From Escherichia phage IME11: a stretch of 64,000 bases of DNA. The stretch's first letter is position 1. The number at the start of each line of letters is the position of its first letter. The DNA is taken from the sequence record NC_019423.1. One strand, 5' to 3'. Under the pieces are notes generated by a model that was given only the letters and a program-made list of their open reading frames with translations, was not told where the DNA came from and did not search any database. Positions 58,087 through 63,838 of this stretch are shown here, piece after piece. The position numbers and the translations under genes are program-made.

Positions 58087-58139
58087 CGCTTATTCTCCTA
58101 AATGTGATTAATAACCAAAAGCTGCGGAGCAGCTATTAC

Positions 58140-61902: not shown

Positions 61903-61917
61903 AGACGCGGAGCGTCT
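61903..61917 (-). promoter_or_regulatory. candidate virion-RNAP (N4-type) early promoter hairpin
   Basis: Template (+) strand AGACGC-GGA-GCGTCT: 6-bp stem, 3-nt GGA loop, upstream of 61412..61795; one of three near-identical hairpins. Confidence 0.45.
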
Positions 61918-62385: not shown

Positions 62386-62568
62386 TTATTCCTTAGTTAG
62401 TTCAACTATAAAGTTATCTAGTTTCTGCCTAGCTATTTCACACGATTCTACTATTGATTCATAGTCATCAGGGTCTGCTGAACCAGCCCAACTATCTGCA
62501 ATTGCTGATTCTGCGTAGTTACTAATTAGCTTTTTAAGCTTCTCTGCTTGCTTAGGATTAAGGGACAT
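62386..62568 (-). CDS. hypothetical protein (60 aa)
   Basis: ORF with AGGAGAAG RBS. Confidence 0.45.
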   Translation of the reverse strand: MSLNPKQAEKLKKLISNYAESAIADSWAGSADPDDYESIVESCEIARQKLDNFIVELTKE

Positions 62569-62621
62569 TTTACTTCTCCTAAAGTAGATAGTTATCTACT
62601 TTTGACTATCTATCTAATGTT

Positions 62622-62649
62622 CAAAACAGGAGACTCCGAAGAGTCTCCT
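62622..62649 (-). terminator. rho-independent terminator with CUUCGG-type loop
   Basis: AGGAGACTC-TTCG-GAGTCTCCT hairpin followed on the minus strand by GTTTTGAAC. Confidence 0.5.
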
Positions 62650-62656
62650 AGGTGAC

Positions 62657-62980
62657 TTAGTCTTTAGTCAGGATGTCAATTACTTTAGAATATTCTGCGT
62701 TATAGATACGAGCGTTCTCTGAATCTTTGCAGAAATCTTCGATACTTTTCTTACGCAGAGTCTCGTTCCTAGCTGTTTCCTCTGCCAGTTTATTAACAAA
62801 GGTATGCATTTCTAATTTAGTACGAATGGCTTGTTTCTCTGCCATAGTACTTACATATGAATTAAGCATACCTACTGCTTTAGTTGCTGTACCAAATGTA
62901 TCTGCAACAGTAGTAGCAGCTGAGTTAACAGTACCAAGTAAAGTTCCTGCGGTCATACGTACAGTAGCGGTAGTAGTCAT
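62657..62980 (-). CDS. hypothetical early protein (107 aa)
   Basis: ORF with GGAG RBS; first gene downstream of the 63023-63037 hairpin. Confidence 0.5.
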   Translation of the reverse strand: MTTTATVRMTAGTLLGTVNSAATTVADTFGTATKAVGMLNSYVSTMAEKQAIRTKLEMHTFVNKLAEETARNETLRKKSIEDFCKDSENARIYNAEYSKVIDILTKD

Positions 62981-63022
62981 GATGATAGCTCCAATAGTTG
63001 ATGATAGGACGACATGTCCATA

Positions 63023-63037
63023 ACATGCGGAGCATGT
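63023..63037 (-). promoter_or_regulatory. candidate virion-RNAP (N4-type) early promoter hairpin
   Basis: Template (+) strand ACATGC-GGA-GCATGT: 6-bp stem, GGA loop; about 50 nt upstream of the ATG of 62657..62980. Confidence 0.45.
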
Positions 63038-63062
63038 GTAACGTGTAAGGTGGGGTAGGGTA

Positions 63063-63181
63063 GTGGCTACACCGTCAACATACCGGGGGGGCTAGTTGAG
63101 TGTAAGGGTGTAGCCCCAGCCACACCACTGTAGCCATACATAGCTATCATCATTTTGGTATGCAAAAATACCATAGCTATC
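63063..63181. repeat. cluster of inverted and direct repeats in the 230-bp early intergenic region
   Basis: Inverted repeat GGCTACACC (63065-63073) / GGTGTAGCC (63107-63115); direct repeat CATAGCTATC at 63139-63148 and 63172-63181 flanking a TGGTAT/ATACCA hairpin; partial direct repeat GTGTAAGG(G)TG at 63036 and 63099. Confidence 0.5.
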
Positions 63182-63213
63182 CTACTTATAAGCAGTTAAA
63201 TAGGAGGAAGCTT

Positions 63214-63534
63214 TCAGGTGATTATGCGTGCTATACCAGGGTAATAGTCCGGATGGTTAGGATTACCACTACTATTCCTTACGGTAGCATCTTTGATAAA
63301 TACATGGGCATAATCACCGTATGGTATGAATACTGACTCACCATTTTGCAGGATAACTATCTCTGCATTACTGTTAGTAAGTAGCTTATGTCCCTGTGCA
63401 AAGTCTGCTAACTCTCCTGGCTCCATTATTAGTGTAGAAGTTCCATGGGTCATAATGTGGATGATTGCTTTTTCTGGTACAGAGGAATAATGCAGTAAGT
63501 CCGTACCTTTCATTCCTAATAGTTTAACGTTCAT
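63214..63534 (-). CDS. hypothetical early protein (106 aa), possibly cupin-like beta-barrel
   Basis: ORF; beta-rich sequence with His residues (HIMTHG, YAHVF); fold guess only. Confidence 0.4.
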   Translation of the reverse strand: MNVKLLGMKGTDLLHYSSVPEKAIIHIMTHGTSTLIMEPGELADFAQGHKLLTNSNAEIVILQNGESVFIPYGDYAHVFIKDATVRNSSGNPNHPDYYPGIARIIT

Positions 63535-63838
63535 GCTTCAGTACCTGTTTAAGAAGACTATCCATGTAATAGCAGTATGCCTCGGAGTTATCATCGTTGA
63601 TTGGTAATCCAATGAACCCGAAGGTGTATATACAGAAGTGATTAAGTTCATGAACCAAGGTGATAGGGTCACTATCTTGTGCATAGATAAGTACCGAACC
63701 ATCAGATAGCAGTGTAGTTACACCTTTGCTTTGTTCCTCTGGTTCACAGCCCTTAGCTTTCTTGTACTTCTTAATGAAGGTATCCCAGTCGAATACTACC
63801 TCTAACTGTACCGGATAGGGGGATGTGTTTAGTTTCAT
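63524..63838 (-). CDS. small HExxH-motif protein (104 aa)
   Basis: ORF containing LVHELNHF; ATG overlaps the upstream gene stop (ATGA). Confidence 0.45.
   Translation of the reverse strand: MKLNTSPYPVQLEVVFDWDTFIKKYKKAKGCEPEEQSKGVTTLLSDGSVLIYAQDSDPITLVHELNHFCIYTFGFIGLPINDDNSEAYCYYMDSLLKQVLKHER

Follow-up and report, generated by a model that had tools for sequence, protein, structure and literature searches.

Repeats at the left genome end of the N4-like phage IME11 as candidate cis-acting end signals

At concatemer junctions of the T7/T3 type, short exact terminal repeats are bounded by a cut made in a sequence-specific manner; both direct and inverted short repeats occur within the terminal repeat and next to it, and the first promoters are placed just inside the end that is injected first. 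In lambda, with the R sites of cosB, and in SPP1, with its pac boxes, several short boxes in direct and inverted orientation are likewise found within about 100 bp of the cut. The ends of the N4 genome were reportedly described by Ohmori, Haynes and Rothman-Denes in 1988. Unlike those of T7 and T3, N4-type ends are reported to have 3' extensions and a heterogeneous right end, and early transcription is carried out by an injected, hairpin-dependent polymerase rather than by the host enzyme. The rules that govern the N4 promoters have been reviewed, and it is the left end that enters the host first (PMC4496689). Among the Gamaleyavirus relatives of N4, PhageTerm classes the ends as direct terminal repeats (DTR) that are short and T7-like, with a 401-bp repeat in Mimir124 and the UE phages, and the Mimir124 paper likens the left end of that phage to the G7C left end, for which Sanger run-off gave verification.

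The region considered here, positions 62981-63213 of a 64,000-nucleotide stretch of coliphage IME11 (the window), had been described in a sequence-only reading as a repeat-rich early intergenic region. The window is identical at every base to the published IME11 coordinates, in which the virion DNA ends were mapped to 63122-63124 and 62722, defining a direct terminal repeat (62722-63123, 401 bp as published), with read pile-ups of 240 reads at 63123, 180 at 63124 and 102 at 63122 (PMC3896407). All six published forward terminal reads fall at identical window coordinates, and the reverse reads match over 17-19 nt from 63122-63124. The terminal reads may truly read ...ACACCCGGA rather than ...ACACCCTTA. 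In the virion, the genome physically ends on the left at 63122-63124, the 5' termini of the conventional top strand and the outer boundary of the terminal repeat. Its leftmost 143 bp are 62981-63123, which are homologous to N4 nt 1-153, and 63124-63213 (minus strand) are the last ~90 bp of right-arm unique DNA, which lie just outside the terminal repeat and abut the left end in concatemers. In virion DNA the region's two halves do not adjoin, since the physical end lies at 63122-63124. The description as an early intergenic region does not hold, as the mapped terminus splits the stretch, every flagged repeat is upstream of the start predicted for the first early transcript at 63019, and an infecting linear DNA has nothing upstream of 63124.

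The ends of related phages converge on the same position. Those of G7C, Mimir124, N4, St11Ph5 and Bp4 align to 63120-63125, and the records of many relatives begin or finish at window positions 63115-63124. The annotated 1160-bp repeat of G7C starts at window position 63122, the DTR of Mimir124 at 63125, position 1 of the N4 record aligns to 63121, and the Bp4 record has the same ~411 bp at both its ends. Mapped ends, a repeat of a few hundred bp and homology to the N4 left end are what would be expected of an N4-like (Schitoviridae) terminus. The flagged stretch is thus mostly a previously described feature, namely a mapped DNA end with conserved end sequences and the first early hairpin promoter. 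We read 62981-63213 as the concatemer junction, or physical left terminus, of the N4-like (Gamaleyavirus) phage IME11, with repeats that would act in cis as end signals, and give this reading as a whole a probability of about 0.6. A 35-codon ORF at 63067-63174 was rejected as a gene, as it spans the physical end and contains a C-run that differs in length by numbers of nucleotides not divisible by three; several small ORFs that have been annotated over the genome end in relatives are probably spurious.

The N4 left terminus with its first promoter (NC_008720 nt 1-153) is homologous to that of IME11 at 75% identity, and the elements follow in the same order: the end, a GGGGCTACAC box, a C-run, an inverted GTGTAGCC, a CTACCCCACC box, TACAC repeats, a hairpin with a 3-nt loop, TTATGGACATG and gp1. 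The terminal repeat is about 400 bp in both (390-440 bp in N4, 401 bp in IME11). N4 differs in having C9 without GGT, a hairpin with stem GTTGC and loop TTC, no distal ATAGCTAT box, and a sequence outside the repeat that is only 55% identical to that of IME11. The IME11 junction is not known to share sequence similarity with those of T7 and T3.

All of the repeats listed in the sequence-only reading were recovered where it had placed them. A GC-rich inverted repeat (GGCTACACC at 63065-63073 and GGTGTAGCC at 63107-63115, with a 33-nt spacer that includes a G7 run at 63085-63091) falls in the first 60 bp of the genome. Just outside the cut are two copies of CATAGCTATC (63139-63148 and 63172-63181), which form a direct and at the same time an inverted repeat because the core, ATAGCTAT, is a palindrome. 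Between them TGGTAT (63157-63162) and ATACCA (63169-63174) enclose a GCAAAA loop, and a partial direct repeat is formed by GTGTAAGGTG at 63043 and GTGTAAGGGTG at 63100. The density of these repeats is greater than chance, and the repeats are real, conserved and, as had been judged, not accounted for by a simple promoter. In 2000 dinucleotide shuffles of 62981-63213 the observed numbers of inverted 7-mer pairs (16, against a shuffle mean of 2.3) and inverted 8-mer pairs (9, against 0.6) were never reached, and direct 7-mer pairs were also in excess (10 against 2.6, P about 0.009). Among 233-bp windows of the IME11 genome the region is in the top 0.3% for repeat density. Both copies of ATAGCTAT in the 64-kb window lie within it (Poisson P = 4e-6), as do three of the six copies of GGCTACA (P = 2e-7), and five copies of TACAC are packed inside 111 bp (P = 4e-6, 64-kb window). 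Tandem Repeats Finder found no tandem repeat in the region.

On the gene-proximal side, the template (plus) strand carries a hairpin at 63023-63037 with stem ACATGC/GCATGT and loop GGA. Promoters of the N4 virion RNA polymerase have, on the template strand, a stem of 5-7 bp and a 3-nt loop in which the middle base is a purine (PMC4496689, PMC3715699), as is the case here, and the template bases required are A or G at -11, G at -10, G at -8 and C at +1 (PMC4496689). With -11 placed on the loop centre at 63030, the corresponding bases are G, G and G, followed by C at 63019, the predicted transcription start on the minus strand (G in RNA, C in template). The hairpin aligns with that at N4 nt 92-104, taken as P1 of N4, and a compensatory change of the stem in relatives (CATGC/GCATG to GTTGC/GCAAC) indicates that pairing is kept, a one-column gap blurring the automatic covariation count. 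Hairpins of this type also start at 61916 and 58133, both with the loop TCC and with TT(A/T)TGG downstream. The upkeep of the stem and the presence of several copies in the leftmost tenth of the genome are as expected of a promoter family, and we strongly infer that 63023-63037 is the first virion-RNA-polymerase promoter, P1, starting the gp1 transcript at 63019. A ribosome-binding site GGAG (62989-62992, minus strand), read from the sequence and invariant in the alignment, precedes the first early gene (62657-62980, minus strand; phrog_5020, E = 5e-44), a homologue of N4 gp1.

The non-coding leader shares 75% identity with N4 and with KP8, and the gp1 coding sequence 71-76%; the leader is as conserved as the coding sequence, and constraint acts on the DNA. 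Four elements, all described here on the minus strand, coincide with long stretches of invariant columns. The terminal box GTGGCTGGGGCTACACCCTTACAC (63098-63123) contains the outer arm GGCTACACC of the inverted repeat (63107-63115) and the first two YTACAC copies, and its GGGCTACACCC.TACAC is invariant in 21 sequences including N4. It is followed by a C7 run and GGTA (63081-63091), the G7 run of the plus strand mentioned above, of which the C7 core is invariant; the run varies from 7 to 13 nt in length among relatives and begins at nt 29-35 from the mapped ends in nine phage records (IME11, G7C, Mimir124, St11Ph5, N4, KP8, LUZ7, LIT1 and one LIT1-like record). The box CCCTACCCCACC (63049-63060) is invariant in 21 sequences, and TACCCCACC lies at nt 64-71 from mapped ends, including that of the Pseudomonas phage LIT1. 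TTACAC-G-TTACAC (63036-63048), the third and fourth direct YTACAC copies and the second half of the partial direct repeat, is invariant in alignment A1. A mini-hairpin TACC-C5-GGTA, which fits G7C and has analogues in the short stems on either side of the C-run in KP8 and JWAlpha, was dropped as a candidate because Gamaleyavirus does not maintain it (variants TAG-C7 and CAT-C7).

The spacing of these elements is conserved along with their sequence. In four genera (Gamaleyavirus, Enquatrovirus, Kaypoctavirus and Litunavirus) the four direct YTACAC copies, C7-GGT at nt 29-35 and TACCCCACC at nt 64-71 keep a fixed distance to the mapped ends; LUZ7, with a C-run that starts at nt 29, is without TACCCCACC. 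The paired motif of C-run and TACCCCACC was found at 28 distinct IMG/VR loci, and in the divergent ones a gene of the gp1 family or of the LIT1-ORF01 family lies just downstream. As would be expected of a pac- or cos-like site, the conserved site coincides with the cut, with invariant blocks on both sides of 63123.

The GC-rich inverted repeat behaves differently from these motifs. The repeat enclosing the C-run is significant in IME11 (P about 0.001), N4, G7C and LUZ7 and absent in at least ten other lineages compared; it shows no compensatory changes in the alignment, in which its inner arm (63065-63073, GGCTACACC on the plus strand) is the least conserved block. A family-wide hairpin around the C-run was rejected on these grounds (missing in at least ten lineages, no covariation); the repeat is best seen as the terminal box in an inverted copy, not as a hairpin under selection. 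The same observations bear on the idea that the terminal inverted repeats fold back to start replication at the left end, by hairpin priming or as an origin, or that the virion RNA polymerase replicates there. After unwinding or resection the strand ending 3' would fold on itself and prime synthesis; the 3'-terminal AGCCAC of the plus strand, ending at 63123, can pair with GTGGCT at 63063-63068, as GGCTACACC can with GGTGTAGCC, and N4 has the analogous pairs GGTGGGG/CCCCACC and GGCTACAC/GTGTAGCC. Hairpin priming at a 3' terminus is attributed to the 1988 work on N4 in PMC3896407, and N4 replication in vivo is listed as requiring, among other functions, the virion RNA polymerase (PMC2784036). 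However, PMC3896407 appears to place hairpin priming at the right end, not the left, the folding energies are unexceptional (z -0.1 to -2.0), and the terminal pairing, as read from the sequence, is not kept in G7C. Together with an inverted repeat that lacks compensatory changes, has the least conserved inner arm and is absent from many lineages that retain the C-run and TACCCCACC, this makes replication from a folded-back left end rather unlikely.

Outside the cut, 63124-63213 is conserved across Gamaleyavirus to about 63210, even where the upstream gene differs, and is 55-64% identical to N4 and KP8. Directly before the cut (C/T)AGT recurs in N4, LIT1-like phages and KP8, and the N4 sequence just outside the cut, ACTTGTGAGTTCAGTATT, is similar to the LIT1-like ACTTGTGATTGCAGTACT. 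A copy of the GGCTACA box, copy A (63129-63135, minus strand), precedes CAGTGGTG, which extends to the cut. The palindromic box GATAGCTATG occurs twice: the proximal box (63139-63148), 16-25 nt outside the cut, is the more widely conserved, with CATAGTTAC in N4, GATAGCTAC in Moo19 and GATAGCTATG in some KP8-like phages, and the distal box (63172-63181), which is the second copy of CATAGCTATC, is found in most Gamaleyavirus genomes and, among the relatives compared, is absent in N4, KP8-like phages, Moo19, pSb-1 and Jgk1. GGCTACA copy A and the distal ATAGCTAT box vary among relatives, an observation that speaks against the proposed set of end signals. Between the two boxes an element of a T-run and an A-run, TATTTTTG-CATAC-CAAAA (63153-63170, minus strand), emerges from the alignments, in which ATATTTTT is almost invariant, and T-run elements occupy the same place in N4, KP8-like phages and metagenomic lineages. 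As a general (middle) promoter motif this element was rejected, as it is present in a single copy in the 64-kb window. The TGGTAT-GCAAAA-ATACCA hairpin (63157-63174, plus strand) is present in IME11 and is not kept in relatives, with 64% of cells paired and some slid controls covarying as much or more. The expectation that the repeats would be conserved in relatives is borne out in the alignments for the end motifs and fails for this hairpin and for the GC-rich inverted repeat.

Two readings of this outer segment as a transcriptional element have been weighed. It might serve mainly to stop transcription of the right-arm operon, with the T-run as the U-tract of an intrinsic terminator by which transcription would be barred from the terminal repeat. 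No part of the segment is better conserved than the T-run, and KP8-like phages, pSb-1 and L044 have, at the homologous place, an AGGAGGT...ACCTCCT hairpin directly followed by a T-run, but in IME11 no G+C-rich hairpin adjoins it and a scan for intrinsic terminators (a G+C-rich hairpin followed by a T-run) found none in 62400-63700. RNAalifold gave no conserved structure in the segment, and a terminator would leave the ATAGCTAT boxes and the conserved (C/T)AGT at the cut unexplained, so that this role is possible though doubtful. Quite improbable, in our view, is that the two ATAGCTAT boxes are operators of a dimeric regulator, flanking a -10-like element and controlling a promoter directed into the terminal repeat. 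These palindromes, the sole copies in 64 kb, are spaced by 33 bp, or three helical turns, and between them is a -10-like TATGGT, replaced by a perfect TATAAT in G7C, NAN33P5, N4, L046 and L052. Against this, no sigma-70 promoter (-35 and -10 at 16-18 nt spacing) was detected within 62981-63213 of IME11, where TATGGT is the only -10-like match, N4, KP8-like phages, Moo19 and pSb-1 are without the distal box, and nothing lies downstream except the terminal repeat with a promoter of its own. Moreover, we know of no regulator that would bind these boxes.

It had also been suggested that the region might be a small-RNA gene or a transcription attenuator, for which the density of inverted repeats is the sole support. 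A permissive Rfam search over the region returned only two chance-level matches (E > 2), and no sigma-70-like or terminator-like site was found in it. RNAalifold on the outer 90 nt gave -1.0 kcal/mol and no covariation, and single-strand folding of both strands of both halves gave z-scores of -0.1 to -2.0. Furthermore, the region is broken by the genome end, the P1 start is downstream of the repeats, and the length of the C-run differs by 1-6 nt between relatives. A small RNA or an attenuator in 62981-63213 is extremely improbable.

Of the functions proposed for the repeats in the sequence-only reading, a protein-binding array is the most plausible kind. Their most likely role would be in the recognition and cleavage of the end in cis, as DNA signals that specify and process the left end. 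The candidate set comprises three GGCTACA boxes (two direct copies that straddle the cut and one inverted), the four invariant direct YTACAC copies, the C7-GGT run, the TACCCCACC box and, just outside the cut, (C/T)AGT and the ATAGCTAT box. These signals may position the terminase or other end-binding proteins, such that concatemers would be cleaved at a single exact position, about 30 nt away from the C-run. As in terminase-binding arrays, the spacing approaches whole helical turns, with 20 bp between GGCTACA copies and 33 bp between ATAGCTAT copies; unlike pac and cos sites, the IME11 motifs are conserved across subfamilies, far more widely than is typical. By the last-in, first-out rule the end that is injected first is packaged last, and as the left end is injected first, the motifs would be signals for the termination cut rather than for initiation. 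To our knowledge, the small terminase subunit of the N4-like group has not been defined, and in the literature searched on N4-like phages we found no description of cis-acting signals that define the ends, nothing specific on packaging signals or terminal inverted repeats, and no experiment tying end motifs to terminase or packaging.

Packaging sites are not usually conserved at the nucleotide level between subfamilies whose terminases have diverged, which speaks against a packaging role; the conservation could instead reflect a better-conserved partner, for instance the replication machinery or the virion RNA polymerase. The first ~80 bp might form a Schitoviridae-wide, position-locked module, made up of C7-13-GGT at nt 29-35, TACCCCACC at nt 64-71 and YACAC-type repeats on the flanks. 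More than a site of terminase cleavage, it would dock the first-injected end to the membrane, to the virion RNA polymerase once ejected or to further ejection proteins, which is an unlikely proposal. The injection stop signal of T5 is comparable in being a cis-acting element in the first-injected terminal region of a phage with stepwise DNA entry, although it reportedly halts transfer several kb into the genome and the IME11 element is in the first 100 bp (bioRxiv 10.1101/866236). The N4 literature infers a topological constraint at the linear end without explaining its cause (PMC4496689). If docking were true, the tether would provide topological closure, allowing host gyrase to supercoil the linear end and extrude the P1 hairpin ~90 bp away.

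Recognition of this stretch as a genome end corrects the map, in which it had figured as an early regulatory spacer, and the gene order and operon boundaries around 62981-63213 are therefore to be read on the linear molecule. N4-like phages are used in phage therapy and serve as a model for the injection of protein along with DNA, and the comparison yields testable candidates for their end signals, in the form of short motifs at a fixed distance from the mapped end in phages from E. coli to Pseudomonas. The family-wide end module is the sole part worth pursuing, and its motifs bear on how a free linear end comes to be supercoiled to switch on the first promoter.

The stretch at 62981-63213, which had been taken for an early intergenic region, has the mapped end of the genome (63122-63124) inside it. 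The commonest terminal reads of IME11 have been tabulated in a genome-termini study, where a direct terminal repeat of 401 bp, 62722-63123, was assigned (PMC3896407). All six published forward reads fall at identical window coordinates (62713, 62720, 62722, 62723, 62724 and 62735) and the reverse reads match over 17-19 nt from 63122, 63123 and 63124; since the terminal reads match window coordinates, the physical genome end lies within 62981-63213, with 5' ends at 63124, 63123 and 63122. Matches to the stretch were found in 82 phage records, almost all from Gamaleyavirus (G7C-like, N4-like Schitoviridae), the closest over the region being Mimir124 (94.7%) and none being identical in the phage collection searched. 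With its genes on the minus strand here, the window runs as the reverse complement of the customary N4 orientation, and the record starts or stops of many relatives fall at window 63115-63124. In G7C the annotated terminal repeat starts at the equivalent of 63122 and in Mimir124 the DTR starts at that of 63125, while the first position of the N4 record aligns with 63121. The Mimir124 paper noted that the left end called by PhageTerm resembles that of G7C, the latter verified by Sanger run-off, and 401-bp repeats have been reported in four further Gamaleyavirus phages. The region is firmly identified as a concatemer junction, or left terminus, and very probably also holds P1, the first early promoter for the virion RNA polymerase. 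The homologous N4 end and the N4 P1 promoter are classical, and for IME11 the genome end at these coordinates had already been published.

On its inner side the terminal repeat is bounded at 62722, inside the coding sequence of the first early gene, gp1 (62657-62980), and the right-end copy therefore has, besides P1, no more than the first 259 nt of gp1. Two minor ends, at 62713 and 62735, were also published; they are 9-13 nt away from the main end at 62722. At 63104-63105 the three commonest published reverse reads (PMC3896407, Table 3) have ...CTACACCCGG(A) where the genome has ...CTACACCCTTA (in an alternative excerpt, ...ACACCCGG(A) in the reads versus ...ACACCCTTA in the window), and a fourth read has an extra T; the read-type sequence ...CTACACCCGG is absent elsewhere in the window. 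This mismatch could stem from an error in the table or a systematic error in the reads, or it could reflect a real difference at the virion end.

Around this end the repeats listed by the sequence-only reading were all confirmed: a GC-rich inverted repeat on the plus strand (GGCTACACC, 63065-63073, and GGTGTAGCC, 63107-63115), whose 33-nt spacer holds a G7 run (63085-63091), a 10-bp direct repeat CATAGCTATC starting at 63139 and 63172, a TGGTAT/ATACCA pair (63157-63174) and a partial direct repeat GTGTAAGG(G)TG (63043 and 63100). Because the ATAGCTAT core of CATAGCTATC is palindromic, that pair counts as direct and inverted at once. The repeats are too dense for chance: the observed counts of inverted 7-mer and 8-mer pairs were matched in 0 of 2000 dinucleotide shuffles of 62981-63213, and the stretch ranks in the top 0.3% among 233-bp windows of the IME11 genome. 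Both copies of ATAGCTAT in the 64 kb and three of the six copies of GGCTACA in the 64-kb window fall within it, and TACAC occurs five times inside 111 bp (Poisson P for the clustering of these motifs, 2e-7 to 4e-6).

Outside the cut, 63213-63124 is some 90 bp of non-coding right-arm DNA that is kept in Gamaleyavirus to about 63210, even with a different upstream gene. In minus-strand order it carries a distal ATAGCTAT box (63172-63181), a T-run/A-run element TATTTTTG-CATAC-CAAAA (63170-63153), a proximal ATAGCTAT box (63139-63148), a GGCTACA box (63135-63129) and CAGTGGTG, which abuts the cut. The T-run could be the terminator of the right-arm operon, as is clear in KP8-like phages and pSb-1, but the terminator scan found none in IME11. 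Alternatively, the palindromic ATAGCTAT boxes could be operators flanking a promoter, and some relatives have a TATAAT there; the distal box, however, is not conserved, and such a promoter would be without a target gene. The outer box at 63129-63134 is CTACAG in IME11, Bas96 and Bp4, and its exact reverse complement, CTGTAG, in G7C, K57alpha1.2, E20 and KP8.

The right-arm gene adjoining the junction (63214-63534 and beyond) belongs to phrog_12606, a mosaic gene of unknown function of which Mimir124 has two; homology with most relatives ends at about 63210, where those relatives have different small genes. Facing this gene on the plus strand (63198-63209) is a strong ribosome-binding-like TAAATAGGAGG with no ORF behind it, and in N4, KP8-like phages, Moo19 and pSb-1 the TAAATAGGAGG words lie in the opposite orientation and form the 5' arm of a terminator-like hairpin. 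Small hypothetical ORFs annotated in the junction of Bas96 (Bas96_0088, which crosses the mapped genome end), Mimir124 and VLCpiP4b (loci L007 708-806, L002 204-314 and L015 718-828), and a "DNA primase" pseudo-CDS in OY979416 that covers the whole junction region (locus L008, 131-1484), look like annotation artefacts.

Inside the cut the minus strand runs through the terminal box GTGGCTGGGGCTACACCCTTACAC (63123-63098), C7-GGTA (63091-63081), the inverted copy GGTGTAGCC (63073-63065), CCCTACCCCACC (63060-63049), TTACAC-G-TTACAC (63048-63036), the P1 hairpin ACATGC-TCC-GCATGT (63037-63023), TTATGGACATG and GGAG (62992-62989) to the start codon of gp1 (phrog_5020) at 62980. The hairpin aligns with one at nt 92-104 of N4, which we take to be N4 P1, and its stem changes in a compensatory way in relatives, from CATGC/GCATG to GTTGC/GCAAC. 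The template (plus) loop is GGA and, with -11 placed at the loop centre (63030), the template reads -11G, -10G, -8G and +1C at the contacts listed in a review of N4 (PMC4496689). The 63023-63037 hairpin is very probably the first virion-RNA-polymerase promoter, with a predicted start at 63019, and all the repeats flagged earlier lie upstream of that predicted start. Two further minus-strand hairpins with 5-bp stems and TCC loops, GACGC-TCC-GCGTC followed by TTATGG (61904-61916) and GCTGC-TCC-GCAGC followed by TTTTGG (58121-58133), are likely the equivalents of P2 and P3, and the three hairpins together fit a set of three early promoters within the leftmost tenth of the genome. Right after the gp1 stop (62620-62648, minus strand) there is a terminator-like hairpin, GGAGACTC-TTCG-GAGTCTCC, then TGTTTTG, which the automatic scan missed; a similar hairpin follows gp1 of N4. 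The proposal that 62981-63213 holds a small RNA or an attenuator drew no support from Rfam, the promoter/terminator scan or RNAalifold, which gave -1.0 kcal/mol for the outer segment with covariation absent.

When 21 sequences from Gamaleyavirus, Moovirus, Kaypoctavirus and N4 were aligned, GGGCTACACCC.TACAC, the C7 core, A.CCTACCCCACCTTACAC..TACAC, the hairpin core and TATGGACATGT were invariant, as was each of the four direct YTACAC copies. Variation is seen in the loop 5' of the C-run, and most of all in the inner arm GGTGTAGCC, which in relatives is CCTGTAGCC, GGGTGTAC, GGTGTAC or CTATGTATG. Conservation of the repeats in relatives, to which the sequence-only reading had looked, extends to the YTACAC copies, the terminal box and C7, but not to the inner arm, the TGGTAT/ATACCA hairpin or the distal ATAGCTAT box. 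The non-coding leader before gp1 shares 75% identity with both N4 and KP8, as much as the gp1 coding sequence does (71-76%), and the outer 90 nt are 55-64% identical to N4/KP8. The C-run (63085-63091 and equivalents) has 7 residues in most sequences, 8 in NAN33P5, 9 in N4 and the related loci L032, L044 and L046, and at its longest 11 in K57alpha1.2 and 13 in L027, which suggests slippage or tolerance of extra C.

In the GC-rich repeat 66% of alignment cells are paired and no pair has changed on both sides; three pairs in a short inner helix, TCAAC/GTTGA, show two-sided changes, all apparently from one lineage (the KP8 group). TGGTAT/ATACCA is paired in 64% of cells, with some slid controls covarying equally or more, and DNA folding of either strand gave z of -0.1 to -2.0. 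By a per-lineage shuffle test the repeat enclosing the C-run is significant in IME11 (P about 0.001), N4 (0.009), G7C (0.04) and LUZ7 (0.04) and not significant in at least 10 other lineages; on this count, and with covariation absent, a family-wide selected hairpin was rejected. The inverted repeat is real in IME11 and N4, and its simplest reading is as the terminal GGCTACAC box copied in inverted form. The pairing potential in IME11 and N4, together with remarks in the literature, makes fold-back priming or a left-end origin plausible, but the poor conservation of the pairing weakens this proposal.

The left ends of the Pseudomonas phages LUZ7 and LIT1 have been defined by run-off sequencing. 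Both have CCCCCCCGGT at nt 29-30 from the end and a 3-nt-loop hairpin farther downstream, LIT1 also has CTACCCCACCTTGT, and ACACACCCCCCCGGTGT and CTACCCACCCCC are present in Achromobacter phage JWAlpha. In nine records whose ends are mapped or declared, the start of the C-run falls at nt 29-35 from the end, and in eight of them TACCCCACC starts at nt 64-71, LUZ7 being without it. When viral contigs were scanned for exact matches to the pattern C7GGT-N12-40-TACCCCACC, 28 distinct loci came back, of which, by rough arithmetic, ten or so could be chance hits. The divergent matches share YACAC/CACAC repeats flanking the C-run on both sides and (C/T)AGT 30-50 nt upstream, then a T-run farther upstream. 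Just downstream lies a gp1-family gene in loci L029, L030 and L049 (phrog_5020, E 1e-26 to 1e-30) and a phrog_6483 gene in LIT1-like loci, and the sequence adjoining the cut on the outside is similar between N4 and LIT1-like phages. No description of such a position-locked, family-wide end module was found in the literature searched.

We infer that the repeats are probably cis-acting signals for making and handling the left end, because sequence is conserved on both sides of a precise cut, because direct and inverted copies of the boxes are spaced by close to whole helical turns (20 and 33 bp), and because neither the C-run nor the TACCCCACC box changes its distance from the end between genera. 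Such a pattern would be expected where a terminase or another end-binding protein is positioned to cut. It can be likened to that of T7 and T3, where packaging signals lie within and beside the terminal repeats; the nucleotide conservation, however, spans subfamilies, a wider range than packaging sites usually show. No binding or packaging data for any N4-like phage were found in the literature searched. The left end is injected first (PMC4496689). In general the DNA that is packaged last is injected first, and the left end would then be the last to be packaged. A constraint on supercoiling at the linear end has been inferred in the N4 literature, its mechanism being left unexplained (PMC4496689). 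We regard it as improbable that the end module tethers the first-injected DNA end, a proposal which, if true, would account for the ability of gyrase to supercoil a linear end and so activate P1.
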